A program made the translations under genes and the position numbers. Of a stretch of DNA of 64,000 bases, positions 28,265-44,901 are shown piece by piece. The stretch lies in the NCBI GenBank assembly GCA_963803805.1, contig CAWDOD010000011.1, forward strand, positions 96,001 through 160,000. The letters run 5' to 3'. The DNA is from an uncultured cyanobacterium (GTDB taxonomy: Bacteria; Cyanobacteriota; Cyanobacteriia; Cyanobacteriales; CAWCAG01). The notes under the pieces are model-generated. The model was not told the origin of the DNA and ran no database searches. It saw nothing but the letters and a program-made list of their open reading frames with translations. Each line of letters begins with the position of its first letter. Within the stretch, counting starts at the first letter, position 1.

Positions 28265-28302
28265 AATTAAGGCAAGGGAAAATATAACTCAGGGAAATAA
28301 TC

Positions 28303-28595: not shown

Positions 28596-29288
28596 CTAGC
28601 CTTGAACAACAAGATAACTAAGCCTATCAATTTTTCCTCCCACAGCTACCGCACCGAAATAATCTTTTCCTAATTGAATATCTTCCAAAAACCAACCAGG
28701 CATATTAATTAATTTTGCTGGTTCTTTTGGTAGCAAAGAAACTTCTACTTCCTCTAAACCTCCTCCTAAACCTTCTCCTGTTGCTTTTAAATAAGCTTCT
28801 TTGCGAGTCCAAGCACGAAAGAAAGCTTGCTTTTGTTCTTGCGGTGGTAAACTTTTGATAATATCTTGTTCCCTCGGTGAAAAGAAACGTTGGGCAATTT
28901 TTTCTACAGGTTTTGTTGCCTTAAATTCTTCAACATCAATGCCCACAGGAAGGTTTTTGGTTATGGCATAAAGAGCTAAATCCCCAGAATGGGAGAGGTT
29001 AAAATGCAGTTGTTCCCCTTTTAAATATGGTTTACCTCGCTCTCCATAACTGAATTGTAGTTGCTTTGGTTCAATGTCTAAATAAGCACCAAGGATTTTT
29101 CTCAACATTCCCCGACAAGCAGTAAAGCGGAAAGAATCTTTAGGGAAATGAAAGCGTTTTGCCTTTTGTTGTTCTTCTGGGCAAAGTAGTTGAGATAATT
29201 CTGGTATCTGATCTGAAAATTGATTTAGCCAAAAACGCCAAATGTGAAGATTGTTATCAGGTAAGACCAATTTACTAGCAAGCTGCAT
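28596..29288 (-). CDS. Sfp/HetI-type 4'-phosphopantetheinyl transferase
   Basis: GKP, FNLSHS, VGIDVE and WTRKEAYLKATGEG motifs; ATG 29288. Confidence 0.92.
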   Translation of the reverse strand: MQLASKLVLPDNNLHIWRFWLNQFSDQIPELSQLLCPEEQQKAKRFHFPKDSFRFTACRGMLRKILGAYLDIEPKQLQFSYGERGKPYLKGEQLHFNLSHSGDLALYAITKNLPVGIDVEEFKATKPVEKIAQRFFSPREQDIIKSLPPQEQKQAFFRAWTRKEAYLKATGEGLGGGLEEVEVSLLPKEPAKLINMPGWFLEDIQLGKDYFGAVAVGGKIDRLSYLVVQG

Positions 29289-29596
29289 TTTAAGGTTGTA
29301 TGGCAATTCTAGGGTGAGATTTGAACAAAGAGTTAAATGTTTTAGGGAAATTAGGGAATAGTCAACAGGGAAAAAATAACGCAATTACACCTCAAATTAG
29401 TTGGGATTTTCTGTTGATAGGCGATCGCAGATTAACAGACATGAGAAAAGTTCTCACTTCCTCTACTCCTTTTCCCTATAAATAACCTATGTTCCTAAAG
29501 TGAAGTTGGTATAATGTACACAAATTTCTGCTGTGATGCTAGCTAATTTAGCTCAAAAAGTTTGCTAAGCTGATAATTCTTTATGCCTGAGCGGTT

Positions 29597-30154
29597 ATGA
29601 CCCAGACTATCACCAAAACCCCAACCTTAGAAGAATTTTTACAACGAGAAGAAACTAAACCAGCTTCGGAGTTTATTAATGGTCAAATTATTCAAAAATC
29701 TATGCCACAAGGAGAACATAGTCGTTTGCAGTATAAAATTTGTACTGCTGTCAACAATATAACTGAACCCGCTAAAATCGCTTTGGCTTTTCCTGAGTTG
29801 CGTTGTACTTTGGGTAATCAATCTATTGTTCCCGATGCAACGGTATTTCGCTGGTCAAGAATTCCCCGTACTGCTTCTGGAAAAATTGCTAATCGTTTTG
29901 AGATTCATCCTGATTGGTCAATAGAAATTTTATCCCCAGGTCAAAATTTTTCTAAGGTGTTGGGTAAACTTTTGCACTGTTCTATTCAAGGTACAGAGTT
30001 GGGTTGGTTAGTTAACTCAACAGAAGAGAGTATTTTGGTTGTACATCCTCAACAAAGGGTGCAGTTGTTACAAGGAAATGAGGTTTTACCTGTATTGAAT
30101 GGGGTGGAGTTAGAGTTAAAGGTTGAGGACGTTTTTGCTTGGTTACAAATTTAG
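29597..30154 (+). CDS. Uma2-family (DUF820) endonuclease-like protein
   Basis: TLEEFL..ETKPASEFING, PELRC, VPD and PDWSIEILSP motifs. Confidence 0.88.
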   Translation: MTQTITKTPTLEEFLQREETKPASEFINGQIIQKSMPQGEHSRLQYKICTAVNNITEPAKIALAFPELRCTLGNQSIVPDATVFRWSRIPRTASGKIANRFEIHPDWSIEILSPGQNFSKVLGKLLHCSIQGTELGWLVNSTEESILVVHPQQRVQLLQGNEVLPVLNGVELELKVEDVFAWLQI

Positions 30155-30264
30155 TTCTAGAGAACTCCAATAAATAAAATAGCCTCACCAAGTATACTAT
30201 TTTAGTAACTAGCCATTAGCCATTCTGAAAACGCTTTTTAAAAGGCATTTTTAACTCTTTTAAG

Positions 30265-30393
30265 TTATTGATTAAAAACCGTCTGTCTTGGTTGGGGATA
30301 GTAGGGATTTTTAGAAACTCCTCCTTTGCTAGTATCTTCCTCTTCTTCGGTAATTTCTTCAGTAACAATCCAGATTGTTTCTGGTTCTGACAT
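30265..30393 (-). pseudogene. Truncated remnant resembling the N-terminus of a Pepco-domain protein
   Basis: Reads MSEPETIWIVTEEITEEEEDTSKGG...NQ*, followed by a degraded frame with further stops. Confidence 0.4.
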
Positions 30394-30495
30394 AGTATTT
30401 AACTAGGAATGTGGATATTTTTATTGTAAAGGGATGGAGGGAAGGGAGAAGATAAGCAAGTCTAAATTGAGTATCAAAAAAAAATTGCCAATACA

Positions 30496-30577
30496 GGACT
30501 TACGCAGCTACACCATATATAGATTCAAAGGTGCGTTACGCTAACACACCCTGCCAATAGAGGCTTTGCGTAAGTCC
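30496..30577. repeat. Short dispersed/MITE-like element with 11-bp terminal inverted repeats
   Basis: GGACTTACGCA ... TGCGTAAGTCC, with internal hairpin GGTGCGTTA-cgc-TAACACACC. Confidence 0.65.
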
Positions 30578-30885
30578 CACAATATTTTTTATATCAGCAT
30601 CAGCTTGAAATCTAACTTGAGCCATCATACTTTCTGCGAAGACTTTAACAGACATAGATTTAATATGAAATAGTTTAAATATCTTGTCGCTACAGTTCCA
30701 CATTAGTTAACTTAGGGGAGATTAGGGAAAAATAAATTTAGAACTTGTGAAAAATTAAGGGAGTTTATTTTTTTGATGAAGATTGAATAAAGTGCAGACA
30801 AGCTTTTCAAGCCTGTGACACAATTGTGGAGGATACCAAACCTCCCCAGCCAATCCACCGAAGTTTACCTTTAATTCTGGGAGTC

Positions 30886-32736
30886 ATGAAGATGACCGAA
30901 AGCCCTACAAATTCGACAGTTAGGGAAGACCAACAACCTGCTACAATAGTAGAGTTATTGCGCAATAAAGCAGCTCAGCAAGGCGACCAGCTAGCCTATA
31001 CATTTTTAATCGATGGTAAAAGAGAAGGGGACTGTGTAACCTATTCCCAACTCGATGCCCAAGCTAGAGCGATCGCCGCTTATCTGCAAAAGAATCAAGT
31101 TAAAGGAGAACGGGCGCTCCTCCTTTATCCTCAAGGTATTGAGGTGGTAGCTGCTTTTTGTGGCTGTCTCTATGCTGGGGTCATTGCTATCCCCGTCCCT
31201 CCCCCAGAATCTGGGCGTATGAAGCGCACTTTACCGAGATTAAGGTCAATTGTCAAAGATGCCCGCGCTTCTCTTGTTTTGACCACAGAAAGGATTTTGG
31301 AAACCATTGTTAATGTTCAGGAGGAGTTTCCTGAATTTGAGACAATGGAATGGATCGACACAGAAAAAATTGACTATCAGTTAGGGGAGAAATGGCAAGA
31401 TCCTCAAATAGATAAAGAGGCGATCGCCTATCTCCAATATACTTCTGGTTCTACTTCCACTCCCAAAGGGGTAATGCTCACCCACGGTAACTTAGTCTTC
31501 CACTGCGGCAACCTACAAAAAGCCTGTGGTTACGACGATAGTAGCATTACGGTTACTTGGATGCCCTATTTCCATGATTATGGGTTGGTAGAAGGGTTGA
31601 TGGTTCCTTTATTTAATGGAACTCCTTGTTACATCATGTCCCCCTTCGCCTTTGTGAAGCGTCCTTTGCGGTGGTTGCAAAGTATTAGTAAGTATAAGGC
31701 TACCCATAGCCAAGCCCCCAACTTTGCCTATGACCTTTCAGTACGCAAAATCAAACCGAAACAACTAGAAACTTTAGATTTGAGTTGTTGGGAAGCAGCA
31801 GGAAACGCGGCGGAACCCATTAACCCCAAGGTTATGGAAAATTTTTACCAAACCTTCGCCCCAACTGGTTTTCGCTGGAATGCCTTTGCCCCTGCCTATG
31901 GTTTAGCCGAAGCAACCTTGTTAGTTTCTACTAAACCTAAATTAACAGAACCTGTCATTGGTTACTTTGACTCTCAAGCCTTGGAACGGGATAAAATTAT
32001 TCCCGTTAATCAAGAGGGGGAAGGGGTGAGAACTATTGCTAGTTGTGGTCAGTTGGTTTGCGAAACTCAAGTAGCTATTGTTAATCCTGATACGAAGAAG
32101 CGCTGCGCCCCCGATGAGGTGGGGGAAATTTGGGTATCTGACAAGAGTGTTACCCAAGGTTATTGGGAACGCCCAGAGGCGACAGCAGAAAATTTTAATG
32201 CTTACATTGCTGATAGCAACGAAGGGCCCTTTTTAAGGACGGGGGATTTAGGTTTTCTCCAAGAAGGGGAACTTTATATTAACGGTCGTATTAAAGATTT
32301 AATTATTATCCACGGCACAAACCATTATCCCCAGGATATTGAGTGGACGGTACAACAACTACATCCCGAACTTCGCCCTGATTATGGTGCAGCCTTTTCT
32401 ATCTTGGTGAGGGGGGAAGAAAAATTAGTGGTTGTTCAAGAAATAGAACGTCGTGCCAAAGAAATTGACCCCGAAGCAATGTTACCGGAAATTAAGCAAG
32501 CGATCGCCGAAGAACATGAATTGCAAGTTCATGCTTTGGTGTTAGCAAAACCAGGAAACATTCTTAAAACCTCTAGCGGCAAAATCCAACGCCGCGCCTG
32601 CAAAGCAAGTTTTTTGGCAGGGGAACTGGGAGTTATTGCTGACTGGAGTGAAAATCCCCAAATTACCGCGAAATTTCGTGACCTCGAAGGAGAAGTAGAA
32701 TCTTTAGCCGCTAGCTTGAAAACCACTAAATCCTAG
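30886..32736 (+). CDS. Fatty acyl-AMP ligase (FAAL)
   Basis: YLQYTSGSTSTPKGV, WMPYFHDYGL, YGLAEATL, RTGDLG, NHYPQDIE and KTSSGKIQR motifs. Confidence 0.92.
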   Translation: MKMTESPTNSTVREDQQPATIVELLRNKAAQQGDQLAYTFLIDGKREGDCVTYSQLDAQARAIAAYLQKNQVKGERALLLYPQGIEVVAAFCGCLYAGVIAIPVPPPESGRMKRTLPRLRSIVKDARASLVLTTERILETIVNVQEEFPEFETMEWIDTEKIDYQLGEKWQDPQIDKEAIAYLQYTSGSTSTPKGVMLTHGNLVFHCGNLQKACGYDDSSITVTWMPYFHDYGLVEGLMVPLFNGTPCYIMSPFAFVKRPLRWLQSISKYKATHSQAPNFAYDLSVRKIKPKQLETLDLSCWEAAGNAAEPINPKVMENFYQTFAPTGFRWNAFAPAYGLAEATLLVSTKPKLTEPVIGYFDSQALERDKIIPVNQEGEGVRTIASCGQLVCETQVAIVNPDTKKRCAPDEVGEIWVSDKSVTQGYWERPEATAENFNAYIADSNEGPFLRTGDLGFLQEGELYINGRIKDLIIIHGTNHYPQDIEWTVQQLHPELRPDYGAAFSILVRGEEKLVVVQEIERRAKEIDPEAMLPEIKQAIAEEHELQVHALVLAKPGNILKTSSGKIQRRACKASFLAGELGVIADWSENPQITAKFRDLEGEVESLAASLKTTKS

Positions 32737-32765
32737 TAGAAACATTCCGTCGGAACGTCTCTACT
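32734..32765. repeat. REP-like palindrome between FAAL and the dehydrogenase
   Basis: TAGTAGAAACATTCC-gtc-GGAACGTCTCTACT. Confidence 0.6.
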
Positions 32766-32785
32766 AGAAAAAGGAGAATATATTA

Positions 32786-34594
32786 ATGCATCCCTTAAAA
32801 CAATATTGGGTCGCAGAAACCTTAGAAAAAGACTTAGGCGCACCCTCAAACCCTAACAGTAAAGTTTCTTGGCAACGTACTGCTGAGTTGGACGAAAAAG
32901 AAGAGTTTCCCCAAGCAGAAATTGACTGGCTTTATAACCAGAAGTTGCAACATTACTACATTCCTAGTGAATGTGGCGGTGAATTCACCAACTTTGAAGA
33001 ATTTGTCGCTTTTGTGCGAGTTCTTTCTCGCCGGGATCAAAACGTAGCGATCGCCTTTACCACCATGTTTTGGTCTTATTTATGCTGGATGGCAGGAACC
33101 CCAGAACAGAAAAAGAAACTGGCTAGTCTCATGAAAGATGAGAACGAAACCATGTGTCTGGCTTATTCAGAAAAGGAACATGGTAGCGACTTAGTAGGGG
33201 GAGAAACCACAGCTACAAAGGTTCCTGGCGGTTACTTACTCAACGGGGAAAAATGGCCCATTAACCGCGCCACCCGTTCCGGTACAACTTTTGTAATTGC
33301 CCAAACCGACCCAGAAGGGGGAAGCAGAAGCCTTTCTCTATTCATGGTGGATAAGCGGGAATTAGACAAGTCTCAATATTACAACCTACCCAAAATTCCC
33401 TGCCACGGTATCAAAGCCGCAGATATGAGTGGTATTGGTTTCACAGATTGTTTCATCCCGGAGAGTACCCTGTTAGGGGAAGAAGGGCAAGGTTTAGAAT
33501 TAGGTCTAAAAGGCTTCCAAATCACCCGTACCCTCTGTGCTGCCTTTTCCCAAGGGGCCGCAGATACCACAGTGCGTACCACCTTGAAACTTGCTTTAAA
33601 TAGAATAGTTTATGGTAAAACAGTCTTTGACCTCCCTTTCCCCCGCCGCATCTTAGTAAACGCTTTCCTCGATATATTAATTTGCGATTGCGAAGTAATT
33701 GCCTCAGCTAGAGGTTTCAGTATCATTCCCCAACAATTTAGTGTTTGGGCTTCGGTGGTTAAATATTTCGTTCCCATTACCTTAGAAAATATGATTAACG
33801 GCCTTTCTTCGGTATTAGGGGCGCGTTTCTATTTTCGGGATGAACACGACTCTGGAGTTTTCCAAAAAATGCTCCGGGATAACTCTATTATTAGCATTTT
33901 TGATGGTAGTGGCTTGGTTAACCTCCATGCCTTAATTTTACAATTTCGTCAAATTGCTAAACACCGTAGCCGCCTTAACGAAAAGAAGAAACAAGCCTTG
34001 GCATCCCGTCTGGAGAAAATCTTCACCCTTAACCAAGAAGTTCCCCACTTTGACGGCAGCAAACTAGAAATTTTTGGTCGTGGTGCAGATGATGCCATGC
34101 AGGGTTTAGAACTATCCCTGGCTAAGTTAAAGGAGTTGAAAAATAATCCTGATGTTAGCCAACAGGTACTTAAGTATATCCTCCAACTGAGCAATAAACT
34201 AAGTGCAGAAGTCAACCAGATGCACGAAAATTTTGCTAACTCAAGCTTTGAATTTGGTCATGATCAAACTCCGGAGTCCTTTGAATTAGCCAAAAAGTAC
34301 TGTGCTTTACACGCTGCTAGTTGTTGCATCCATATGTGGGTTTATAACCGCACCAACTTAGAACCATTCTTTGCCCAAGGAGAATGGTTAGTTTTAGCCC
34401 TTAACAAGCTACTAAAACCCTATCATCCTAACGAAGAGTTGATTTTGCCGGATTATGGAGAAAACTTAGCTCAAGAACTAGTTAAACTTTATAACCAAGA
34501 CAAACTCTTTTCCATTGTTCCTTTCCAATTAGCACAAACCCAATCTCAGGAGAATAAAAAAGATGCAAGTTCAGAACTACAACTCCAAGCCTAG
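32786..34594 (+). CDS. Acyl-CoA/acyl-ACP dehydrogenase family protein
   Basis: LAYSEKEHGSD, LNGEKWPIN and IFDGS motifs; AAGGAG SD. Confidence 0.9.
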   Translation: MHPLKQYWVAETLEKDLGAPSNPNSKVSWQRTAELDEKEEFPQAEIDWLYNQKLQHYYIPSECGGEFTNFEEFVAFVRVLSRRDQNVAIAFTTMFWSYLCWMAGTPEQKKKLASLMKDENETMCLAYSEKEHGSDLVGGETTATKVPGGYLLNGEKWPINRATRSGTTFVIAQTDPEGGSRSLSLFMVDKRELDKSQYYNLPKIPCHGIKAADMSGIGFTDCFIPESTLLGEEGQGLELGLKGFQITRTLCAAFSQGAADTTVRTTLKLALNRIVYGKTVFDLPFPRRILVNAFLDILICDCEVIASARGFSIIPQQFSVWASVVKYFVPITLENMINGLSSVLGARFYFRDEHDSGVFQKMLRDNSIISIFDGSGLVNLHALILQFRQIAKHRSRLNEKKKQALASRLEKIFTLNQEVPHFDGSKLEIFGRGADDAMQGLELSLAKLKELKNNPDVSQQVLKYILQLSNKLSAEVNQMHENFANSSFEFGHDQTPESFELAKKYCALHAASCCIHMWVYNRTNLEPFFAQGEWLVLALNKLLKPYHPNEELILPDYGENLAQELVKLYNQDKLFSIVPFQLAQTQSQENKKDASSELQLQA

Positions 34595-34880
34595 TGAACA
34601 AGCTACAGGGGAGAATTCCCCCACAGAAGCGATTCAAAGCTGGTTAGTGGCGCAATTAGCCGAGGAATTATCCTTAGACCCCAACTCTATTAAAGTTAGC
34701 GAACCCTTGACCCGTTATGGTTTAGACTCAATTGATGCTGTAACTTTGGTGGGTGATTTAGAAGACTGGTTAGATTTAGAGTTACCTTCTACTTTATTCT
34801 GGGATCACCCCACGATCGAAAAATCTGCCCAGTTTCTCGTTTCTGAGTTTGATGTGGCAGAAGCGTTGGAAGAGGCCTAA
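34563..34880 (+). CDS. Acyl carrier protein
   Basis: YGLDSIDAV phosphopantetheine Ser and DHPTI; AGGAG SD inside the upstream gene. Confidence 0.92.
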   Translation: MQVQNYNSKPSEQATGENSPTEAIQSWLVAQLAEELSLDPNSIKVSEPLTRYGLDSIDAVTLVGDLEDWLDLELPSTLFWDHPTIEKSAQFLVSEFDVAEALEEA

Positions 34881-34992
34881 GTTATCTCATCTAAGTTATG
34901 CCCTTTTGGGGAGATGGGGAGATGGGGAAACAAGATAATATCTTTTGCCCTTTACCCTTTATCTGTAAAACCCTGTTCCCCCTTCCTTCTAA

Positions 34993-35027
34993 CCACTAGC
35001 CACTAGCCACTAGCCATTAGCAATTAG
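34993..35027 (+). repeat. Heptamer tandem repeat (CCACTAG/CCATTAG; STRR-like)
   Basis: Five units. The same family occurs near 25856, 28573, 30209, 37466 and 38818 in either orientation. Confidence 0.8.
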
Positions 35028-35039
35028 CATCAAAATAAA

Positions 35040-36515
35040 TTGAACTTTTCAGACTTTTCATTTTGGTGGGTGCTGCTACTCTACAGCATTCCGTTTTTAA
35101 TCATTCGCACTATTGGCAAGTCCATTAACCGTTGGTTGCCGGAATTTGACCGCATTGGTTTAATGGTCTTGTCTTTGACGTTGTTTTTAAATGCTTCTTT
35201 TAAAAGCTTCGCTGTCTTCCTGTTTGAGATTATTTTTAATTACTTAATGGTGCGGTTAATGCTGCGCCAAAAAGGAACTTCAGCCAAACTGTTGGCCACT
35301 TTGGTGATTGTTTTTGATATTGCTATTTTGGCTTATTTTAAATATTTAACTTTTTTTGTTGAAGATGTAATCGGTTTAGGCATACCTGGTGGCATCTCAG
35401 AAAATTGGCAAGCAGGCTTTCCTTTACCCGTATTTAATCAAATTCCCCCTGGAGTTTCCTTCTATACCTTCCAAATGGTATCTTTTGTGGTGGAATCCCT
35501 GAAGCAAACCAAAAGGAAACGCCAGCCTAAACCCATTGCTTTTATTGATTACGTTAACTTTGTGGCCTTTTTTCCTCAAATTGTTGCTGGTCCTATTGAA
35601 CGGCGTTCAGATTTATTTCCCCAACTCCAAAAATTTGAATTTCAATTTAAGGCAGATAATATTGAAGCGGGACTGCGTTGGTTTTCCCTAGGACTATTTA
35701 TGAAAATGGTTCTGGCGGATAATCTTTTCCCTTTCATTGATATAGAACAAGCAACCAATCCTTGGTTAGTGTGGTTGTATGCTTTCCTCTTTACCCTGAG
35801 AATTTACTTTGATTTTGCCGGTTATAGTTTCATGGCTTTGGGTATTGCTAGGACTATGGGGGTACAACTAACTATCAACTTTCTCTCTCCCTATACTTCC
35901 ACCAGTATTCAAGAATTTTGGCGACGGTGGCATATCACCTTAAGTACTTGGTTTCGGGATTATGTCTTTATTCCTTTGATGGGGACTAACAAAAAGTGGG
36001 CCACTTCCTATCTTTTCATAACCTTCACCCTGTCTGGTTTCTGGCACGGTGCAGCTTGGAATTTTATTATTTGGGGAGCATACCACGGGGCTTTATTGCT
36101 TCTGTTGCGTTATGCTGGGCGGCCTTTCCAACGCTTGGTGGGGCAACCTGGCGGAGGTTCGCAGTTTTTCTCTTGGGCTTTAACTTTTGGGTCAGTAATT
36201 TTGGGTTGCTTATTCTTTATGGAAACGAATATTAGCCGCTTAGTTACCAAACTACAAACTATTATTAATCCCACAGCTTATTCCTGGGGTAACTTAACTG
36301 GGGCTTTTAGCGATTTTACCGTTAATGAAATAGCTGCTCTTAGTTTAACCTTGGGGCTAAGTTTGGGTTGGTTACTAATTGAACATATTGAAGTTTGGCA
36401 AAAACGCCCCGAATACGAACTACTCCGAAACCCTTGGGTATCCCCTTTGCTGCTAGGTTTAACCTTTTTATTAGCAGCTAATCAACCTTCTGAATTTATT
36501 TACTTTGAATTCTAA
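35040..36515 (+). CDS. MBOAT O-acyltransferase (AlgI/DltB-like) #1
   Basis: GVSFYTFQ, FFPQIVAGPI, DFAGYS, FWRRWHITLS, catalytic SGFWHG; C-terminus FIYFEF. Confidence 0.92.
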   Translation: MNFSDFSFWWVLLLYSIPFLIIRTIGKSINRWLPEFDRIGLMVLSLTLFLNASFKSFAVFLFEIIFNYLMVRLMLRQKGTSAKLLATLVIVFDIAILAYFKYLTFFVEDVIGLGIPGGISENWQAGFPLPVFNQIPPGVSFYTFQMVSFVVESLKQTKRKRQPKPIAFIDYVNFVAFFPQIVAGPIERRSDLFPQLQKFEFQFKADNIEAGLRWFSLGLFMKMVLADNLFPFIDIEQATNPWLVWLYAFLFTLRIYFDFAGYSFMALGIARTMGVQLTINFLSPYTSTSIQEFWRRWHITLSTWFRDYVFIPLMGTNKKWATSYLFITFTLSGFWHGAAWNFIIWGAYHGALLLLLRYAGRPFQRLVGQPGGGSQFFSWALTFGSVILGCLFFMETNISRLVTKLQTIINPTAYSWGNLTGAFSDFTVNEIAALSLTLGLSLGWLLIEHIEVWQKRPEYELLRNPWVSPLLLGLTFLLAANQPSEFIYFEF

Positions 36516-37444
36516 TGTCGAAACCTTTAAACCTACTGAAATGGTTCGCTGCGGCTGGTTTAGCTTGGGGTCTTGGTTGCGTTTATAACGTTTACTATGG
36601 CGGCGAGTTAAGTTGGTTGCGGATTATGTATCAAGAGAAAGTCGCCTTAGCCAAAAAGATCGAAGCCCCAAGAAGATTAATTATTACCGGGGGTTCAGGG
36701 GCCCATTACACAATTAATTCTGAGTTGTTGGAAAAAGAGTTAGGCATACCTGTAATTAACCTGGGTATAGATGGTCCTGTGGGATTAGATGTAATTCTAC
36801 CCAGTGTTCTTAAGCAAGTGCAACCAGGGGATGTCGTCCTATTAATTCCTGAATATTTAGTTCTCCTCGATGAAGATGGTTTAGGGGAACGTTCCGGCCC
36901 TTTTGTTTTGGCTACCGGACAGGTTGGTATAGGAGATATTCCCCCGAAACAGTTGGCCCAGGATATTTGGATGTTAGGCATTCCTAGCTTAAGGGCCTTG
37001 ACAAAATCAACTTTTGACCTCTTCCAAGAAGGTAGATTGACAGGTTACTATTCTGACCCCATTACCGAACGAGGAGATCCCACAGTAATTAAAGAAAGGA
37101 CAGGGGAATGGTGGAAATTAAAAATTCAAGACCCCATCTCACCCCACTCTGTTAAACGCATCAAAAAGTTTCGCGAAGAATTAGAAGCTAAGGAGGCAAA
37201 TTTAGTTATTTCTTTGCCTTGGGTTTATGCGGAAAAAGACAAAAATACTCTCAAAAATGTCAAAAAAACTGCCCAAGAAATGGAGAAAATTGCCCCTCTA
37301 ATTTATGATCCCAAAAATTACAATATCCAAAGCGATTCGGATCTCTTCGCCGACACCCACTACCATCTCAAATTAGATTCCATGAAAATGCGATCGCGCC
37401 AAATTGCTGAAGAAATTGAACCGATTTTGGAAGAATTAGAGTGA
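36515..37444 (+). CDS. Membrane-anchored SGNH/DltD-like acyltransferase partner
   Basis: N-terminal TM; ITGGSG (block I Ser), INLGIDG and DTHYH. TAATG stop/start overlap with the MBOAT. Confidence 0.7.
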   Translation: MSKPLNLLKWFAAAGLAWGLGCVYNVYYGGELSWLRIMYQEKVALAKKIEAPRRLIITGGSGAHYTINSELLEKELGIPVINLGIDGPVGLDVILPSVLKQVQPGDVVLLIPEYLVLLDEDGLGERSGPFVLATGQVGIGDIPPKQLAQDIWMLGIPSLRALTKSTFDLFQEGRLTGYYSDPITERGDPTVIKERTGEWWKLKIQDPISPHSVKRIKKFREELEAKEANLVISLPWVYAEKDKNTLKNVKKTAQEMEKIAPLIYDPKNYNIQSDSDLFADTHYHLKLDSMKMRSRQIAEEIEPILEELE

Positions 37445-37571: not shown

Positions 37572-38771
37572 ATGTCAGATCAAACCAATCTTCCTAATAC
37601 AACAACTCCTATCAAAATCTGCATCCTGGGAGGTGGTTTTGGTGGGCTTTATACGGCTTTATATTTGCAGTCTTTTAAAGGGATTAATTCTTCTCGCTAT
37701 CAAGTTACGTTAGTTGATCAAAATGACCATCTTCTCTTTACTCCCTTGCTTTATGAAGTGATTACTGATGAGTTACAAACTTGGGAAATTGCCCCTACTT
37801 ATAAAAAGTTGTTGAATCATACAAAGGTAAGAATTATTCAGGATCGAGTTGTTGCTTTAGATTTAGAAAGTCGTTCAGTAAAACTACAACAAGGACAACT
37901 TACCTATGATTATTTAGTTCTTGCTTTAGGGAATAAGAATCGTTTTGCAGGAGTTCCGGGGGCGAAAGAACATAGTTTAACTTTCCGTAGCTTAAAAGAT
38001 ACTTTACGTTTGAAAGAAAGGCTTGGGGAATTGGCAAAATCGGCAAGGGAAACTATTCATGTAGTAATTATTGGTGGTGGCCCGAGTGGAGTAGAATTAG
38101 GGACAAAAATAGCTGACTTTTTGGGTAGAAGGGGAGAGATACGCTTAATAGAAAGGGGGACTCAAATTCTCAAAGCTTATACCCCAGCAACCCAACGTAG
38201 CGGTAAGGAAGCTTTGGAAAAAAGAGGAGTGAGGATAAGTTTTGAAACTAGTGTTGAGAGGGTTGAACCGGATCAAGTTACTTTAATCCAAAAAGGAGAA
38301 ACTTTTGCTATTCCGGTAGATTTAGTGTTGTGGAGTGCAGGTACAAAAACTCAGGAATTAATTGCTAATTTAACTTGCCAACATAATGAACAAGGACAAG
38401 TAATTACTTTACCTACTCTACAAATCCCCGAATATCCTGAAGTACTTGCTTTAGGAGATTTAGCAGAAGTTAAAAACCCTAATGGTAAATTAGTCCCCGC
38501 AACGGCACAAGCCGCTTATCAACAAGCAAGTCAAGCAGCTAAAAATTTGAGGGCTAGTTTGGCAAATAAACCTTTAAAACGCTTTCGTTATTTGCATTTA
38601 GGAGAAATGATTACTTTAGGGGTTAATGATGCAGCAGTTTCAAGTTTCGGTATCAATTTAAAAGGTTCCCTAGCTGCTTTGGTAAGAAGAATTGTTTATC
38701 TTCAACGCTTACCAACTTTTTCTCATCGTTGGAAAGTTCTTAAGGGCTGGTTGGGGCTAAGTAATAAGTAA
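37572..38771 (+). CDS. Type II NAD(P)H dehydrogenase, NdbB/demethylphylloquinone reductase-like
   Basis: ICILGGGFGGLYTAL, LQTWEIAP, GGGPSGVE and PATAQAAYQQ motifs. Confidence 0.8.
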   Translation: MSDQTNLPNTTTPIKICILGGGFGGLYTALYLQSFKGINSSRYQVTLVDQNDHLLFTPLLYEVITDELQTWEIAPTYKKLLNHTKVRIIQDRVVALDLESRSVKLQQGQLTYDYLVLALGNKNRFAGVPGAKEHSLTFRSLKDTLRLKERLGELAKSARETIHVVIIGGGPSGVELGTKIADFLGRRGEIRLIERGTQILKAYTPATQRSGKEALEKRGVRISFETSVERVEPDQVTLIQKGETFAIPVDLVLWSAGTKTQELIANLTCQHNEQGQVITLPTLQIPEYPEVLALGDLAEVKNPNGKLVPATAQAAYQQASQAAKNLRASLANKPLKRFRYLHLGEMITLGVNDAAVSSFGINLKGSLAALVRRIVYLQRLPTFSHRWKVLKGWLGLSNK

Positions 38772-38857: not shown

Positions 38858-40744
38858 ATGAAAGAAAAACCTAAAAATATCTGGGCATCTAAATTTTCAC
38901 AAGTATTTGGTTTCGACTTGCGATCGCTGGCTGCTTTTCGTGTTGGTTTGGCATTAGTTATTTTAGCAGATTTGTTTACCCGTTTAGGGGATTTAACTGC
39001 CCATTATACCGATTTAGGTGTTTTACCTCGTTCTGCTTTGGAAGGGGGCATTCTTAAGCCTTGGTATTGGTCAATTCATTTGATTAGTGGGCAACCTGTA
39101 GTACAGTTTCTGATATTTTTAACCGCTATTTTAGTTACTTTGTGCCTATTAGTTGGTTATCGTACTAGGTTAGCTACTATTGCTTGTTGGGCTTTAATTG
39201 TTTCTATGCACAACCGCAATCCTGCCTTGATTTTTGCTGCGGATGATGTGTTGCGGGCTATTTTATTTTGGGCGATGTTTCTACCTTTAGGATCAGCCTA
39301 TTCATTAGATAGTGCTTTTAATAATTCCCCGAAACCTTTACCGAAACGAGTGGTTTCTGGGGCAACTATTGCTTTATTGGTACAACAATGTTTTATTTAT
39401 ATTTTTTCTGCTGCTTTTAAAACCCAAAGTCCTACTTGGTTCCCCGATTATACCGCAGTTTATTATGCCTTGAGTTTTGATCAATATGTCACTCATATAG
39501 GACGTTTTTTACTTAATTTTCCTCCCTTGTTATCCATATCTACAGCTATTACTTTAGTTTTAGAGTGGATTGGGCCATTGTTTTTATTAATACCAAATAA
39601 CCTGGTTCGTTTATTCACCGTACTAACTTTTATTGGCTTACACGCTGGCTTTGGTTTAACTTTAAATATTGGCATTTTTCCTTTCCTGAGTATTGCTACT
39701 TGGTTAGTATTTTTGCCTTCTTCTTTTTGGGATGGTTTAGCCAGGAAGTTTGCAACTCAGGAAAGGCAGGGTTTGCGAATTTATTATGATGCTGATTGCG
39801 GTTTTTGTAAGAAAGTAGTTTATATTCTGCGTACCCTCCTTATCTTGCCGGGAACACCCCTTTTATTGGCACAGGATGACCAGTCTATTTATGAAGATAT
39901 GCAGAGAATTAATTCTTGGGTTGTGGTGGATGCTAAGGGAAATCGCTATTATAAATTTGGTGCTATTGCCTATGTAGTTAGTATTTCTCCTATCTTTTTT
40001 CCTTTAGCCAAAATTTTACGCTGGCAACCGATTATGAAGGTAGGAAATAGGTTCTATGAAACCATTGCTAATAATCGCCGCAAAGCAGGATTTTTTACCA
40101 AACCTTTTAAGTTTCGCCCCCTTACAGTTCGTCCTTCTTTACTCCTTAATATTGTTACCTCTCTACTATTGATTTTAACCTTTCTTTGGAATCTACGCAG
40201 CTTTACCAACCATTTTGCTTTCCTCGATAATAAAAGCAAAACTTTTACAGCTTTGCGACGAGTTACTAATAGCAGAACCCTACAAAGAATCGATCCTTTA
40301 AGTCGTATCAGCAGATTAGACCAATCCTGGAGTATTTTTGCTCCTAGTCCCCCGAAAGATGATGGTTGGCACGTCATGCCAGGGAAACTTAAAAATGGGG
40401 AAGAGGTAGATGTTTTTCAAAATGGTGATCCAATAAATTGGAAAAAACCAACCTTAAATAAGCGCAATTCCCTCTATAAAAATATGCAATGGCGTACTTA
40501 TTTTATCAACCTTAATCGTAATATTGGTAAGAAGCTTTACCCTCACTACGGTAAGTATGTTTGTCAAAACTGGAATCAACACCATCAAGGAGAGGAAGTA
40601 TTAGAGAGTTTTGAAGTTTATTTCGTGGCAGAAGAAACAGCCGAACCAGGAAAAAAACAGAATCTAGAACGTAAAAAAGTCGGCGAATATTCTTGTTCGC
40701 AGCAAGATAAGGAAGTAAGGAAAGAAGGGCAAGAATCGGAGTAA
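38858..40744 (+). CDS. HTTM (vitamin K-dependent carboxylase-like) membrane protein with inserted DCC1-like CxxC domain
   Basis: DLRSLAAFR, LVGYRTR, YSLD, IYIFSAAFK, YYDADCGFC and LDQSWSIFAP motifs. Confidence 0.8.
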   Translation: MKEKPKNIWASKFSQVFGFDLRSLAAFRVGLALVILADLFTRLGDLTAHYTDLGVLPRSALEGGILKPWYWSIHLISGQPVVQFLIFLTAILVTLCLLVGYRTRLATIACWALIVSMHNRNPALIFAADDVLRAILFWAMFLPLGSAYSLDSAFNNSPKPLPKRVVSGATIALLVQQCFIYIFSAAFKTQSPTWFPDYTAVYYALSFDQYVTHIGRFLLNFPPLLSISTAITLVLEWIGPLFLLIPNNLVRLFTVLTFIGLHAGFGLTLNIGIFPFLSIATWLVFLPSSFWDGLARKFATQERQGLRIYYDADCGFCKKVVYILRTLLILPGTPLLLAQDDQSIYEDMQRINSWVVVDAKGNRYYKFGAIAYVVSISPIFFPLAKILRWQPIMKVGNRFYETIANNRRKAGFFTKPFKFRPLTVRPSLLLNIVTSLLLILTFLWNLRSFTNHFAFLDNKSKTFTALRRVTNSRTLQRIDPLSRISRLDQSWSIFAPSPPKDDGWHVMPGKLKNGEEVDVFQNGDPINWKKPTLNKRNSLYKNMQWRTYFINLNRNIGKKLYPHYGKYVCQNWNQHHQGEEVLESFEVYFVAEETAEPGKKQNLERKKVGEYSCSQQDKEVRKEGQESE

Positions 40745-40805: not shown

Positions 40806-42293
40806 ATGCTTTTCAATTCCTACGTTTTCATCTTCATCTTCCTACCCATAACCTTAATTGGCTTTTTTAGCTTAACAAGGTTTAAATTTACCAAATTAGC
40901 AACAGTTTGGTTAACAGTTAGTTCCTTTATTTTCTACGGTTATTGGAACCCTCTCTACCTACCTTTACTCATTCTTTCTGTTGTCTTTAACCATCAAATG
41001 GGGGCGCAAATTGGTAAACTTATTGCCCAAAATAATCAGAAGCAGGCAAAGGTATTTCTTTGGGTAGGAATCATCATCAACTTATTAAGTATTGGCTATT
41101 ATAAATATGCCAATTTCTTCTTCACTTCCCTTAATGATACTTTTGGTAGCAATTTCACTATTTACCGGATAATTTTACCTTTAGGTATATCCTTCTATAC
41201 TTTTACCCAGATTGCCTATCTTGTTGATGCCTATCGAGGAGAAACCGATAAATTAAACTATGACCTTTTAACCTATAGTTTATTTGTTTCTTTTTTCCCT
41301 CAACTAATTGCAGGACCAATTCTGCGCCACGATGAACTTATTCCCCAATTCCGTAAATTAAAAAACTTCGTTTTTTCTCATAAAAACTTTGCTCTAGGTT
41401 TAGTCTTATTTAGTTTAGGGTTATGTAAAAAAGTTCTCATAGCAGATAGTGTTTCTCCTTGGGTAGCTGATATTTTTGCAAATGCTACTGAGGTTAACTT
41501 TATAGAAGCCTGGGTGGGTGCATTAAGTTATACCTTACAACTTTATTTTGATTTCTCCGGCTACTCTGATATGGCTATTGGTTTAGGATTGATGTTTAAT
41601 ATCAACTTACCAATTAACTTTAATTCTCCTTACAAAGCGACTTCTATTAGTGATTTTTGGCGACGGTGGCATATTACTTTATCTAATTTTTTGAGGGACT
41701 ATCTCTACATTCCTTTAGGAGGAAGTCGCAAAGGGGAAATACGTCGCTACTCTAATTTGATTACCACTATGTTATTAGGAGGATTGTGGCATGGTGCAGG
41801 TTGGCCTTTTGTTATTTGGGGAGGTATTCATGGACTTTATTTATCTATCAACCATGCTTGGCGCAAATATGCCTTTCCTTTACCAAAAATAGTTGCTTGG
41901 TTTATAACTTTTACAAGTGTGGTTTTTAGTTGGGTACTATTTCGTGCTGTCACTTTAAGAGATGGCATAGAGATATTAACAGCGATGGTTGGCTTGAAAG
42001 GTATAGTTGTTCCTGGAGAAGCGACGGGTAAATTAGGTTTTCTAACGAATTTTGGTATTCAACTACAGTCATGGAATAATATTACCTACCTACCAGAAAC
42101 TAACGATAGCAAAATCATCACCTTAGCAGTTCTTTTGGGATTAGTACTAGCGGTTGCTTTATTACCAAATACGCAACAAATTCTCCAAAAGCTAAAACCT
42201 ACTTGGTGGTGGGCTGTTAGCATTGGTTTGTTAACTAGCTATTGTTTACTATCCCTTAACCGTGTTTCTGAGTTCCTTTATTTCCAATTTTAA
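40806..42293 (+). CDS. MBOAT O-acyltransferase (AlgI/PatA-like) #2
   Basis: MLFNS, LPLGISFYTFTQ, FWRRWHITLS and GGLWHGA; C-terminus FLYFQF. Confidence 0.92.
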   Translation: MLFNSYVFIFIFLPITLIGFFSLTRFKFTKLATVWLTVSSFIFYGYWNPLYLPLLILSVVFNHQMGAQIGKLIAQNNQKQAKVFLWVGIIINLLSIGYYKYANFFFTSLNDTFGSNFTIYRIILPLGISFYTFTQIAYLVDAYRGETDKLNYDLLTYSLFVSFFPQLIAGPILRHDELIPQFRKLKNFVFSHKNFALGLVLFSLGLCKKVLIADSVSPWVADIFANATEVNFIEAWVGALSYTLQLYFDFSGYSDMAIGLGLMFNINLPINFNSPYKATSISDFWRRWHITLSNFLRDYLYIPLGGSRKGEIRRYSNLITTMLLGGLWHGAGWPFVIWGGIHGLYLSINHAWRKYAFPLPKIVAWFITFTSVVFSWVLFRAVTLRDGIEILTAMVGLKGIVVPGEATGKLGFLTNFGIQLQSWNNITYLPETNDSKIITLAVLLGLVLAVALLPNTQQILQKLKPTWWWAVSIGLLTSYCLLSLNRVSEFLYFQF

Positions 42294-42320: not shown

Positions 42321-43517
42321 ATGAAAACTTTCCCTGAAAAACCCGAGGTTGCTAAAACCAAAAAGATAAAACAGCGTCGAAAGAAACAGTATCGACATTT
42401 TACTCTTTTCCTTTTAGTTATTATTTTTCTACCAACTCTTACTGTTGGCCTATTTAATTGGCGGATTGATCCCTATGGCATTTTTAATAGTCCAGAAATT
42501 AAAGGTTTTAATCAAGCCAAACCAGAGAAGCTTAAAAATACAAGATTATTTAAAGCTGTGGCAATTACTAATCTCAAACCTATTACTATATTCCTTGGTT
42601 CTTCTCGCACAGACTACGGTTTAGAACCCAACCATCCTGCTTTAAAACAACCAGCTTATAATTTAGGTTTAGGGGCAGCAAGTCCCTACGAACTTCTCGC
42701 TTATTTAAAACACGCTATCTATAACCAAGAAAATATTGAACAAATTGTAATTGGTTTAGATGAGTTTATGTTTAATGCTAACAATGAAGCTAGCCCAGAT
42801 TTTTCCGAAGCCCGTTTAGAAACCAAAAATATTACTCTTCTTGATACTATCAACACCACATTTTCTCTAGATGCAATTGCGGCGAGTCAAGAAACTATTG
42901 AAGCTAGCAAAACTAATCCTAATTATGTTACCCATAGCCCAAAAGGTCAGTTACAGCTAAGATTGATTGATCGTGATAAATCGGCAACAGATTACCGCTT
43001 TAATACGAGTATTGGTTTTTATTTCAAGTCCTTTCCGCAAGATTATCAATTATCTCAAAAGCACTTGGATAACCTGAAAAAGATTGTCAAATTAGCCAAA
43101 GAAAATGATATAGCTATTAAAGCTTTCATTTCTCCTGCCCATGCCACTCGCTATGAAACAATTCGCGTTGCGGGGCATTGGCAAGAATACGAAGAAATGA
43201 AGCGACAATTAGTGAAGATTTTGCCAGTTTGGGATTTTTCTGGTTATAACAGTATCACCATAGAACCGATTAGCGAAGAGATTAAAAATTATATTGATGA
43301 TTCCCATTATCAAGAAGAAGTTGGTAATTTAGTTCTCAATCGTCTATTCAACTATGAAGTAGAAAAAGTACCAGAAGATTTTGGTGTTCTCGTTACATCC
43401 CAAAATATAGAATCCCATTTAGCTAAGATTCGTTCTCAACAAGCAATTTGGGAAGAGAATAATCCTGAAGAAGTAGAAATGGTGAAAGAGATTCAAAATA
43501 ACCTTGCTAATCGCTAA
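42321..43517 (+). CDS. Membrane-anchored SGNH-like protein (AlgJ/DltD-type partner)
   Basis: TM followed by IDPYG; LGSSR, YNLGLG and DDSHY motifs. Confidence 0.7.
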   Translation: MKTFPEKPEVAKTKKIKQRRKKQYRHFTLFLLVIIFLPTLTVGLFNWRIDPYGIFNSPEIKGFNQAKPEKLKNTRLFKAVAITNLKPITIFLGSSRTDYGLEPNHPALKQPAYNLGLGAASPYELLAYLKHAIYNQENIEQIVIGLDEFMFNANNEASPDFSEARLETKNITLLDTINTTFSLDAIAASQETIEASKTNPNYVTHSPKGQLQLRLIDRDKSATDYRFNTSIGFYFKSFPQDYQLSQKHLDNLKKIVKLAKENDIAIKAFISPAHATRYETIRVAGHWQEYEEMKRQLVKILPVWDFSGYNSITIEPISEEIKNYIDDSHYQEEVGNLVLNRLFNYEVEKVPEDFGVLVTSQNIESHLAKIRSQQAIWEENNPEEVEMVKEIQNNLANR

Positions 43518-43635: not shown

Positions 43636-44901
43636 GTGGTTTTTATATTTGTTAGTCAACAGGGATATATAATAACTAATCAACAAACCTCAAACCTTGT
43701 CAACTTGCTTCTACCTTCCCCTTCAGGTTCTTTCCAAATCAATCTTGTCTCTACTTCTAAAAAGAAACTTTCCCTAATTTTACCTACCTATAATGAAAGC
43801 AAAAATCTTCAGTTCGTTATTTCCCAGCTAATTAGTTTATTAGACAGTAAGTTACCAGAAAACTACGAACTCATTGTCGTTGACGATGATAGCCCTGACA
43901 AAACCTGGAAAATTGCTCAATCTTTGCTGCCGAAATATTCTCAACTCAAAGTAATTCGCCGTCAGGGAGAAAAGGGACTTTCTACTGCGGTAATTCGTGG
44001 TTGGCAAGCATCCCAAGGAGACATATTGGGGGTTATAGATGCTGATTTACAACATCCCCCAGAGATCCTGGTTTCGATGGTAAACACTATTGAAGAAGGA
44101 AGAGATTTAGTAATTGCTAGTCGCCATATAGAAGGAGGAGGTGTCAGCGACTGGAGTTTTGGGAGAAGATTTTTGTCTCGCGGCGCACAAACCATTGGCT
44201 TAGTAATTTTACCAGAAGTTGTTGGTAAAGTATCTGATCCCATGAGTGGCTATTTTTTGGTGAAGAGAGAGGCGATCGCTCAGCAAAAATTAAACCCGCG
44301 AGGTTATAAGATTCTCATTGAAGTGTTAGCCCGTTGCCATATTAGTAAAATAGCTGAAGTAGGCTATATTTTTCAAGAACGTCAAGCAGGTGAGAGTAAA
44401 GTAACCTACCAACAATATTTAGACTACCTCGTACATTTAATTGTTTTACGCCTCTATTTATGGCAAGTTAATCGCTTTATACGCTTCGGTTTAGTGGGTT
44501 TAACTGGTGTATTTGTAGATATGAGTATACTTTACCTATTAAGCGATCCTCACACCTTAGCTTGGGGGCTAACTCGTAGCAAAATTATTGCTGGGGAAGT
44601 AGCAATTATCAACAATTTCTTGTGGAATGATGCTTGGACATTTGCAGATATTGCTATCAAACAAATAGGTTGGCAACAACGTTTGAAACGCCTCTTGAAA
44701 TTCAACCTGATTTGCTTGCTAGGCTTATTTCTTAATGTCGTAATCCTCAACCTCTTATTCAACTACTTAGGTTTCAACAACTTCTCGACTGGCAGATATA
44801 TAGCTAACCTCATAGCAATAGCTATCGTTACTGGGTGGAATTTTTGGCTTAATCTTAAATTGAGTTGGCGAGTAACCCAGGTAAATAGCAAGAAAACTTA
44901 G
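43636..44901 (+). CDS. GT2 polyprenyl-phosphate glycosyltransferase fused to a GtrA domain (start uncertain)
   Basis: PTYNE, VDDDSPD, DADLQHPP and SDPMSG; C-terminal four-TM GtrA segment (RFGLVG..NNFLWN). Confidence 0.85.
   Translation: MVFIFVSQQGYIITNQQTSNLVNLLLPSPSGSFQINLVSTSKKKLSLILPTYNESKNLQFVISQLISLLDSKLPENYELIVVDDDSPDKTWKIAQSLLPKYSQLKVIRRQGEKGLSTAVIRGWQASQGDILGVIDADLQHPPEILVSMVNTIEEGRDLVIASRHIEGGGVSDWSFGRRFLSRGAQTIGLVILPEVVGKVSDPMSGYFLVKREAIAQQKLNPRGYKILIEVLARCHISKIAEVGYIFQERQAGESKVTYQQYLDYLVHLIVLRLYLWQVNRFIRFGLVGLTGVFVDMSILYLLSDPHTLAWGLTRSKIIAGEVAIINNFLWNDAWTFADIAIKQIGWQQRLKRLLKFNLICLLGLFLNVVILNLLFNYLGFNNFSTGRYIANLIAIAIVTGWNFWLNLKLSWRVTQVNSKKT

Follow-up and report, generated by a model that had tools for sequence, protein, structure and literature searches.

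The window analyzed here is a 64,000-nucleotide stretch of DNA from an uncultured cyanobacterium (contig CAWDOD010000011.1, positions 96,001 to 160,000 of the forward strand). It contains a string of genes for a FAAL (fatty acyl-AMP ligase), an ACAD-like flavoprotein, a stand-alone acyl carrier protein (ACP), a DltB-like membrane-bound O-acyltransferase (MBOAT1), and a protein of 309 amino acids with a predicted SGNH fold (S309). The explanation that is favored, at somewhat better than even chances, is that these genes encode a carrier-fed MBOAT-SGNH relay. The relay would bring a fatty-acyl group out to the periplasmic face, where it would be attached to an envelope acceptor, with a conserved GGCX-like quinone/thiol redox module alongside. 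The original prediction, made from the letters of this DNA, had proposed a Dlt-like relay with a fatty-acyl cargo. This is still the best reading because the gene order is conserved, the MBOAT motifs and a predicted SGNH fold are present, and no megasynthase is nearby. The cluster is, however, no member of the Dlt family. On this best reading, its donor is a Dlt-style carrier, its fused shuttle is of the PatA/AlgI style, and the cargo is a fatty-acyl group.

In the mechanism that we infer, its chemical steps, chain length, topology, acceptor, and redox-module role included, the HetI-like 4'-phosphopantetheinyl transferase (PPTase) would prime Ser56 of the ACP. The FAAL would adenylate a fatty acid and load it onto the holo-ACP. 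The ACAD-like flavoprotein, with Asp373 as its base, would then alter the tethered chain, most simply to the 2-enoyl form. At the cytoplasmic face, MBOAT1 would receive the acyl group from the carrier and, through its conserved His, pass it to Tyr488 of its FIYFEF shuttle at the outer face. S309, with its N-terminal helix as a membrane anchor, would take the acyl group on Ser61 and hand it on to the acceptor. A quinone-redox module that acts on the same product or acceptor would be formed by the NDH-2-like flavoprotein and the HTTM/DCC1 protein.

The genes of the cluster are as follows. Their domain and fold identities were observed, as were the motif conservation and synteny described below.

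28596..29384, minus strand: PPTase, Sfp/HetI-type 4'-phosphopantetheinyl transferase (Pfam ACPS 3.9e-23 and AASDHPPT_N)
30826..32736, plus strand: FAAL (AMP-binding 4.3e-68)
32786..34594, plus strand: ACAD-like flavoprotein, 602 aa (three ACAD Pfam domains)
34563..34880, plus strand: stand-alone ACP, 105 aa (PP-binding 4.1e-16)
35040..36515, plus strand: MBOAT1, DltB-like (Pfam MBOAT 1.4e-29)
36515..37444, plus strand: S309, 309 aa, predicted SGNH fold (AlphaFold model and Foldseek)
37572..38771, plus strand: NDH-2-like flavoprotein of the pyridine-nucleotide-disulfide family (Pyr_redox_2 7.3e-47)
38858..40744, plus strand: HTTM/DCC1 fusion, GGCX-like (Pfam DCC1-like 6.5e-9; HTTM 26.5 bits; LMF1)

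There is a 32-nt overlap between the ACAD gene and the ACP gene, whose ATG is at 34563, and the MBOAT1 stop shares one base with the S309 ATG (TAATG at 36513-36517). These open reading frame (ORF) coordinates bear out the five co-oriented genes, both overlaps, and the divergent PPTase that had been described. The window had also been said to lack a polyketide synthase (PKS) or nonribosomal peptide synthetase (NRPS) module, and a Pfam/NCBIfam scan of 46 window ORFs indeed found no PKS/NRPS domain. The spacer between ACP and MBOAT1 is 159 nt. Upstream of the MBOAT1 start, near-identical heptamers (ccactag / ccattag / caattag) are found at 34985-35030, and these may be a short tandem repeat or a regulatory element. 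A promoter/terminator scan of 28000-47500 gave fewer sites than shuffled sequence and was uninformative. Rfam and tRNA scans of the window gave no matches.

Conservation of the gene neighborhood

Alignment A1, of 15 S309 relatives, was used for the structure model and as the bait of a genome scan that returned 145 confirmed places. All locus counts refer to the best 80 of these. Neighbors were located by tblastn with the window proteins, and only loci with enough flank were counted. All 80 loci are in cyanobacteria or metagenome-assembled genomes, and several cyanobacterial families are represented. In 57/76 loci, MBOAT1 directly precedes S309, without exception on the S309 strand. The ACP (53/74), ACAD (51/71), and FAAL (46/64) genes are also found upstream, on the same strand throughout. 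The gene order had been put forward as something that should be conserved, and the neighborhood comparison agrees: where MBOAT1 is present, it is preceded by the ACP in 52/54 loci, by ACAD in 50/52, and by FAAL in 43/45. At the junction of MBOAT1 and S309, 23 of 59 loci have the 2-nt gap in tblastn hit coordinates that a TAATG overlap gives. The PPTase is upstream in 14 of the 53 loci with room for it, and it is divergent in 12.

The conserved unit is larger than the five genes first proposed. The NDH-2-like gene is downstream of S309 in 46/65 loci (same strand in 45), and the HTTM/DCC1 gene in 56/59, which makes it the most constant neighbor of all. Both appear to belong to the unit. MBOAT2, a second MBOAT gene, is downstream in 21/55 loci and its presumed partner D398 in 19/52. 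The gene arrangement is far beyond chance and recurs in dozens of cyanobacterial genomes.

Diversion of the ACP to a PKS or NRPS had been named as an outcome that would speak against the relay, and no megasynthase was found within 10 kb in the loci examined. Stop-free frames of at least 800 aa number seven across the 80 loci. Five of these were scanned and none is a PKS/NRPS; they encode an ABC transporter, a ClpB-like ATPase, a GAF histidine kinase, a serralysin-like protein, and an MmeI-type enzyme. The two other frames have the same size and position as the GAF histidine kinase. No conserved polysaccharide synthase or exporter was found across the S309 loci.

In approximately 18 loci, S309 is followed by the HTTM gene, and upstream both MBOAT1 and the donor genes are missing. 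Such loci are in Crocosphaera/Cyanothece-type genomes or are second copies in Coleofasciculus. In a quick IQ-TREE maximum-likelihood tree of 80 S309 sequences, 16 MBOAT1-less loci and two undecidable ones form one starred clade (SH-aLRT 96), and L003 and L010 form a separate pair. One locus of the same clade, L051, has ACAD-ACP-MBOAT1-NDH2 adjoining S309 in inverted orientation. MBOAT1 orthologues of 65-67% identity were found in Rippkaea orientalis PCC 8801, Crocosphaera sp. Alani8, another Crocosphaera, and Cyanothece sp. UBA12306. In Crocosphaera sp. Alani8, the MBOAT1 orthologue and S309 are on different contigs. The MBOAT1-less loci are considered to be split clusters because MBOAT1 orthologues occur elsewhere and the loci fall in a single clade. 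The rearranged loci keep S309 with the HTTM gene and not with MBOAT1. It was also considered that S309 acts without any MBOAT in Crocosphaera-type loci; this was rejected on account of the MBOAT1 orthologues elsewhere in such genomes and of L051.

The two split loci that were scanned (L027, 6274-9941, and L049, 6270-9770) have a conserved divergent trio upstream of S309. Its products are a DegT-type sugar aminotransferase and two proteins, of about 610 and about 150 aa, that fall into no Pfam family. L049 has a GT2 gene nearby as well. This layout is reminiscent of an Arn-like set for aminosugar modification, which may be a clue to the acceptor.

Donor genes, MBOAT1, and S309

The PPTase scores 236.6 bits against the NCBIfam HetI model, under the cut-off of 370, and it is presumed to prime the ACP. 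For the ligase, the top NCBIfam models are all FAALs (PRK05850, 460 bits; FadD32, 455; PRK12476, 434), each under its curated equivalog cut-off. Long-chain-fatty-acid--CoA ligase models give 170 bits or less, except PRK07768 at 310. The DltA model PRK04813 gives 106.7 bits (cut-off 476), far under the FAAL models. Matches in the PDB are the polyketide synthase FAAL 7r7e (E 5.7e-166), 3kxw, and FadD32, the FAAL range being E 5.7e-166 to 1e-96. These relatives include a cyanobacterial-type PKS loading FAAL and Legionella and mycobacterial FAALs. By sequence comparison, the ligase is strongly indicated to be closer to characterized FAALs than to acyl-CoA synthetases.

The ACAD domains end near residue 380 of the third protein and are followed by a C-terminal extension of about 220 aa, for which there is nothing credible in Pfam at E<=10. 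The profile of residues 31-380 matches butyryl- and medium-chain acyl-CoA dehydrogenases (5ol2, E 9e-33). Asp373 (F-D-G) aligns with the catalytic Glu of the YEG motif of acyl-CoA dehydrogenases, and this Asp is present in 54/54 sequences. The model for the MbtN acyl-ACP dehydrogenase, NF037942, has a cut-off of 700 bits, and the protein scores 18.8. Nitroalkane oxidase, which is also of the ACAD fold, has an Asp as its base, and activity is therefore plausible. From its domains, the protein is presumed to be an acyl-ACP dehydrogenase. The desaturated acyl group of the original prediction has these ACAD domains in its favor, but the replacement of the catalytic Glu and the low MbtN score count against it, and it can be proposed only as a possibility.

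Ser56 of the ACP is within GLDSI in 39/40 orthologues, with GVDSI in one. Among NCBIfam models, the closest is that of the N-terminal Pks13 ACP, which NCBIfam pairs with the FAAL FadD32. Matches in the PDB are 2n98, 4hkg, Asl1650, and the Pks13 ACP.

MBOAT1 has a single NCBIfam match, DltB TIGR04091, at 182.6 bits (cut-off 375). Its only match among PDB sequences is also DltB (6bug and 8jem; E 1.9e-25), in an alignment that spans WxRWH and GFWHG and sets them against the same motifs of 6bug. None of the 58 MBOAT1 orthologues lacks either of these conserved His motifs. The protein ends in F486-I-Y488-F-E-F491, and the last six residues are FIYF[ED]F in 58/58 orthologues. The assignment of an MBOAT to the relay was thus upheld by both the His motifs and a C-terminal FXYXXF. 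The accessible text of PMC12148441 describes FXYXXF as an 'acyl shuttle' motif, and states that DltB moves D-Ala from DltC to the motif Tyr on the microprotein DltX. In the same text, PatA auto-acetylates the Tyr in its own C-terminal motif with acetyl-CoA as donor, and its SGNH partner PatB acetylates the acceptor from an acetyl-Tyr hexapeptide (PMC12148441). MBOATs with a fused FXYXXF are described there as users of acyl-CoA that have no carrier protein (PMC12148441).

S309 has no Pfam or NCBIfam family above noise. An AlphaFold2 model was made from A1, with a mean pLDDT of 88.4. A long helix at the N-terminus (7-27) is followed by another helix and by an alpha/beta domain. In Foldseek searches of the PDB, the model matches SGNH hydrolases with a probability of 1.00. 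Among these are rhamnogalacturonan acetylesterase (1deo, E 5.7e-5), Enterococcus DltD (6pfx, E 4.2e-4, TMq 0.41), PatB (7tlv, E 2.5e-3), TesA, and PAF acetylhydrolase. The claim that the fifth gene encodes an SGNH protein holds at the level of the AlphaFold/Foldseek fold, but no sequence model gives it that label.

The residues invariant in A1 are G60-S61-G62-A63-H64, N82, G84, G87, and D280-T281-H282-x-H284. GGSGAH, with Ser61 as the putative nucleophile, is present in 74/79 S309 orthologues. ADTH[YH]H is present in 78/79, the remaining one being masked. In the model, Ser61 is at the start of a helix after strand 55-59, and D-T-H is before the last helix. This Ser61 / D-x-H order in the model is as expected for SGNH blocks I and V. 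GGSGAH is missing from five Coleofasciculus second copies (L049, L053, L054, L063, and L069). In the two inspected, L049 and L054, the sequence is GGSGAN: Ser is kept but Asn stands in place of His64, so the family can do without this His. In Coleofasciculus sp. LEGE 07092, a tandem second S309 copy directly follows the first (L002, 9751-10662), with 41% identity to the window protein. From the model, S309 appears to have an SGNH fold behind a predicted N-terminal helix. Its family is unnamed, and the protein is presumed to be the transferase from acyl-Tyr to the acceptor.

A word-indexed search found 421 relatives of S309 at E<=1e-3, with 57-100% identity among the 120 matches listed. The named relatives among the matches listed are all cyanobacterial, and most are annotated as 'hypothetical protein'. 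An exhaustive hidden Markov model search extended the family to at least 3739 clusters of 50% identity at E<=1e-3 and 1291 at 1e-10. Among 95 near-full-length distant members, taken from 150 listed, 92 have no Pfam family, and three have sub-threshold matches to the AlgX SGNH-like domain. An Atlas query with the S309 homologue P0045 gave look-alike clusters in Verrucomicrobiota and Chloroflexota. The family is large, unnamed, and extends beyond cyanobacteria.

The redox module and the downstream genes

The NDH-2-like flavoprotein scores 140 bits against TIGR03169, under the cut-off, and is presumed to be a quinone reductase. The next protein has an HTTM membrane domain, an inserted DCC1 thiol-disulfide oxidoreductase domain, a long helix, and a C-terminal domain of 180 aa for which Pfam offers nothing credible at E<=10. 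Its HTTM score is 26.5 bits (cut-off 27.7), and LMF1 also matches. The DCC1 motif D311-x-x-C314-x-x-C317 (D..C.FC) is present in 67/67 orthologues. An argument from DCC/HTTM fusion was reportedly made by Ginalski et al. The AlphaFold2 model has a pLDDT of 82.2, and its top 16 Foldseek matches in the PDB are all human GGCX (best E 2.3e-5, TM about 0.40 over about 600 columns). The Foldseek probability is 1.00 for 15 of these and 0.98 for the sixteenth, and later matches are noise. A sequence-profile search of the PDB gave no match, GGCX included. By its model, the protein appears to be an HTTM family member with a GGCX-like fold.

The catalytic residues of human GGCX are Lys218, Asp263, and Asn290 (PMC13486548). 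In the alignment, Lys188 is the only invariant Lys of the HTTM part. No VKOR was found with the module. Prediction of a complex of the HTTM/DCC1 protein with S309 gave scores of 0.00 and 0.00, run without controls, and is no evidence either way. A role of the HTTM/DCC1 protein as an LMF1-like disulfide maturation factor for S309 was considered and rejected, since 78/79 S309 orthologues have no cysteine.

The accessible part of bioRxiv 10.64898/2026.08.19.745780 predicts that Firmicute HTTM+DCC1 proteins pair with DUF5819 proteins that have a single transmembrane helix. It also describes MloH as a bacterial vitamin K-dependent carboxylase of malonomycin biosynthesis (bioRxiv 10.64898/2026.08.19.745780). 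For giant viruses, a role in lipid remodeling has been proposed for modules that combine VKOR with a GGCX-like epoxidase and a desaturase (PMC13486548). No description of a GGCX-like module joined to an MBOAT-SGNH relay was found in the literature, including PMC13486548 and the accessible part of bioRxiv 10.64898/2026.08.19.745780. No paper on cyanobacterial HTTM proteins was found either, subscription-only literature aside.

The cyanobacterial enzyme NdbB has a quinone-reducing role. In the present cluster, the NDH-2-like enzyme may supply quinol, and the DCC1 domain may recycle an oxidized cofactor. It is conceivable, although rather improbable, that FAAL, ACAD, ACP, MBOAT1, S309, NDH-2-like, and HTTM/DCC1 proteins are all parts of one machine. 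In it, the exported acyl group or the acceptor would be carboxylated, epoxidized, or oxidized in some other way at the outer face by the quinol-dependent GGCX-like enzyme, with its cofactor recycled by the NDH-2-like protein and DCC1. If this is true, it would be a bacterial 'vitamin K cycle' that runs on the cell's own phylloquinone or menaquinone for envelope lipidation.

The other genes of the string are listed below, together with a gene that lies between the PPTase and the FAAL.

29597-30154, between the divergent PPTase and FAAL: Uma2-family gene (putative restriction endonuclease-like)
40806..42293, plus strand: MBOAT2, DltB/AlgI-like (Pfam MBOAT 6.5e-34)
42321..43517, plus strand: D398, presumed SGNH/DltD-like partner of MBOAT2 (GSSR and DDSH motifs)
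43636..44901, plus strand: GT2 and GtrA fusion of the polyprenol-phosphate sugar synthase type (Glycos_transf_2 7.2e-33; GtrA_DPMS_TM 2.6e-22)
45045..46215, plus strand: split D398 paralogue, a 99-aa piece and a 289-aa remainder (translations; weak DUF1574 match)

The Uma2-like gene looks inserted, as the PPTase is nearer to FAAL in the related loci that carry a PPTase. MBOAT2 starts 61 nt after the HTTM/DCC1 gene and scores 154.9 bits against DltB TIGR04091 (cut-off 375). Its C-terminus is FLYFQF (Tyr492) in 23/23 orthologues. D398 has a weak DUF1574 match (1.3e-4, under the cut-off) and no relevant match in a sequence-profile search of the PDB. G93, S95, R96, and H329 are invariant and D326 is near-invariant. 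A comparison of D398 with the S309 family by hhalign is weak (probability 14.5%, E 0.0019), with GSS/GGS and NLGL/NLGI aligned, and the likeness of the two is suggestive only. In the split paralogue, the 99-aa ORF corresponds to the N-terminus of D398 and the 289-aa ORF to the rest, and together they cover the full D398 length. The break is a stop or frameshift near 45344, and intact second copies are found at the same place in other loci, such as L030 and L048.

GT2-GtrA orthologues (60-62% identity) are present 0.2-7 kb downstream of the HTTM gene in L011, L012, and L040. The fusion protein possibly supplies a periplasmic sugar donor. Its presence in the string and the sugar-modifying genes beside the split loci point weakly to a glycoconjugate target.

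Elsewhere in the window, the minus-strand region 8153-9069 is probably a disrupted P450 gene that adjoins a TetR regulator (7564-8187). A 180-aa ORF (8527-9069) matches the cytochrome P450 profile over its first 162 of 462 positions only, and after it comes a 132-aa ORF (8153-8551) in another frame. Downstream of the envelope-modification string are tandem paralogous response-regulator-GGDEF diguanylate cyclases of 352 aa each (48418-49476 and 50004-51062).

Alternative readings and comparison with known systems

Several findings weigh against a carrier-fed relay in which S309 is the final transferase. A profile search of PDB sequences gave no relevant match for S309 and hence no sequence link to DltD, PatB, or AlgX, and the Foldseek TM-scores of its model are modest, 0.33-0.43 when normalized to the query. 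By sequence, the Asp in place of the catalytic Glu and the near-absent MbtN match argue against treating 2,3-desaturation as established. By analogy with other MBOATs that have a fused motif, MBOAT1 could use acetyl-CoA while FAAL-ACAD-ACP serve another purpose. In L009 and L058, MBOAT1 is present without the upstream donor block, and unrelated genes are found there. S309 also adjoins the HTTM gene (56/59) more steadily than it adjoins MBOAT1 (57/76).

The alternative that survives best, while still unlikely, keeps the relay and gives it an end other than a polymer. In this alternative, S309 would be a hydrolase that frees a modified fatty acid, a signal or a surfactant, outside the cytoplasmic membrane, or it would acylate a small lipid or glycolipid. 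This would fit the Foldseek matches of S309, which are mostly esterases or lipases, and the lack of a polysaccharide synthase or exporter that is conserved in the loci. MloH, described in the accessible part of bioRxiv 10.64898/2026.08.19.745780 as the one function-assigned bacterial member of the HTTM fold, also acts on a small-molecule intermediate. However, the known MBOAT-SGNH pairs, as far as the accessible text of PMC12148441 covers them, all transfer onto envelope polymers. The GT2-GtrA glycosyltransferase and a second MBOAT pair are in the same gene string, and sugar aminotransferase and GT2 genes are beside S309 in the two split loci that were scanned.

It is quite unlikely that the cluster serves two side-by-side functions. 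MBOAT1/S309 and MBOAT2/D398 would then be acetyl-CoA O-acetyltransferases of the PatAB/AlgIJ kind. The FAAL-ACAD-ACP set would provide an acyl-ACP starter, unsaturated or not, for a lipopeptide, polyketide, or other lipid made elsewhere. The fused FXYXXF of MBOAT1 is the type that the accessible text of PMC12148441 ties to carrier-free systems using acyl-CoA, and a FAAL with a free-standing ACP is a standard set for lipopeptide initiation according to the accessible part of PMC9113097. MBOAT2/D398 is in the same string and has no donor genes of its own, and a 159-nt spacer separates the ACP from MBOAT1. Against this, MBOAT1 has the ACP immediately upstream of it in 52/54 loci from several cyanobacterial families, and there is no PKS/NRPS within 10 kb in the loci examined or in the 64-kb window. 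The donor block also moves with MBOAT1 when the cluster splits, as L051 keeps ACAD-ACP-MBOAT1 together.

That S309 is mainly part of an HTTM/DCC1/NDH-2 system, with MBOAT1 acylating the acceptor directly or via another SGNH protein, is very unlikely: it would suit the HTTM gene after S309 in 56/59 loci against MBOAT1 upstream in 57/76, the S309 that stays with HTTM in the split clade (18 rows), and the single N-terminal transmembrane helix of DUF5819, the predicted partner of Firmicute HTTM+DCC1 proteins in the accessible part of the bioRxiv preprint, but MBOAT1 and S309 share a stop-start overlap with the same geometry in 23/59 loci, an SGNH fold is what an FXYXXF-bearing MBOAT requires, and the cyanobacterial HTTM protein has a C-terminal helix and domain of its own, in a model that aligns with GGCX over about 600 columns.

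The carrier-fed relay with an envelope acceptor thus stays the preferred reading, and it would extend the known range of MBOAT-SGNH systems. The accessible text of PMC12148441 divides these systems at present into Dlt, with a carrier donor and a separate DltX, and the others, with acyl-CoA and a fused shuttle. In the proposed relay, a carrier protein is the donor, the shuttle is fused, and the cargo is long-chain, which would set the cluster apart as a third design. If this is true, diderms have a way to put fatty acids on extracytoplasmic targets that is not related to Lnt/Lgt or the lipid A acyltransferases. This would bear on views of cyanobacterial sheaths, exopolysaccharides, lipopolysaccharides, and surface hydrophobicity. 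It would also give a first functional context to the unnamed SGNH-like family, with its at least 3739 clusters, and to the bacterial GGCX-like HTTM/DCC1 proteins. The original prediction knew of no characterized cyanobacterial example, and literature searches likewise found no description of one. No paper was found that links a FAAL or ACP to an MBOAT-SGNH pair outside Dlt, subscription-only literature aside and with a term search of the accessible part of the FAAL review PMC11837247. A phylum-wide survey of exopolysaccharide genes left the cyanobacterial AlgI/MBOAT homologues unanalyzed (PMC4594306).

The cluster is not a Dlt member. It has no DltA, no separate DltX, and no DltD-family match, and the DltB model is under its cut-off. 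It does share with Dlt an adenylating enzyme, a carrier, a DltB-like MBOAT, a motif Tyr, and a protein whose SGNH fold and N-terminal helix are predicted here. It differs in the fatty-acid cargo, in the FAAL that replaces DltA, and in the added ACAD-like enzyme. The shuttle motif is fused to MBOAT1, whereas in Dlt it is on the microprotein DltX. S309 and D398 have no DltD match in Pfam, NCBIfam, or PDB sequences. Unlike the hosts of Dlt, a cyanobacterium is a diderm without teichoic acids.

PatA/PatB (peptidoglycan), AlgI/AlgJ/AlgX (alginate), and WssH/WssI (cellulose) are similar to the cluster in their fused C-terminal FXYXXF, in a partner with an SGNH fold (predicted for S309), and in their diderm hosts, as described in the accessible text of PMC12148441. 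They differ in that acetate is transferred without a carrier or ligase, whereas here the ACP is upstream of MBOAT1 in 52/54 loci.

Cassettes of FAAL, ACP, and acyl-ACP dehydrogenase are found in MbtM/MbtL/MbtN (mycobactin) and LipA/LipD/LipB (friulimicin). Together with FadD32-Pks13, they are comparable to the cluster in having the same three enzyme types in one operon. Cassettes of the MbtM/MbtL/MbtN type feed a cytoplasmic NRPS, PKS, or acyltransferase, and none was found here. The present ACAD also differs from theirs in its Asp for Glu and its 220-aa extension. In the redox module, the likeness to GGCX is the fold match of the HTTM/DCC1 protein, and a thiol-disulfide domain and a putative quinone reductase are the parts that a quinol/epoxide cycle would need. 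The differences are the lack of a sequence match, the inserted DCC1 domain, and the absence of a VKOR among the genes found.

The eukaryotic MBOAT lipidators Porcupine, HHAT, and GOAT use acyl-CoA and have no SGNH partner, acyl-Tyr shuttle, or carrier protein. They are similar to the proposed relay in that an MBOAT carries a medium- or long-chain fatty-acyl group across a membrane to an extracytoplasmic acceptor.

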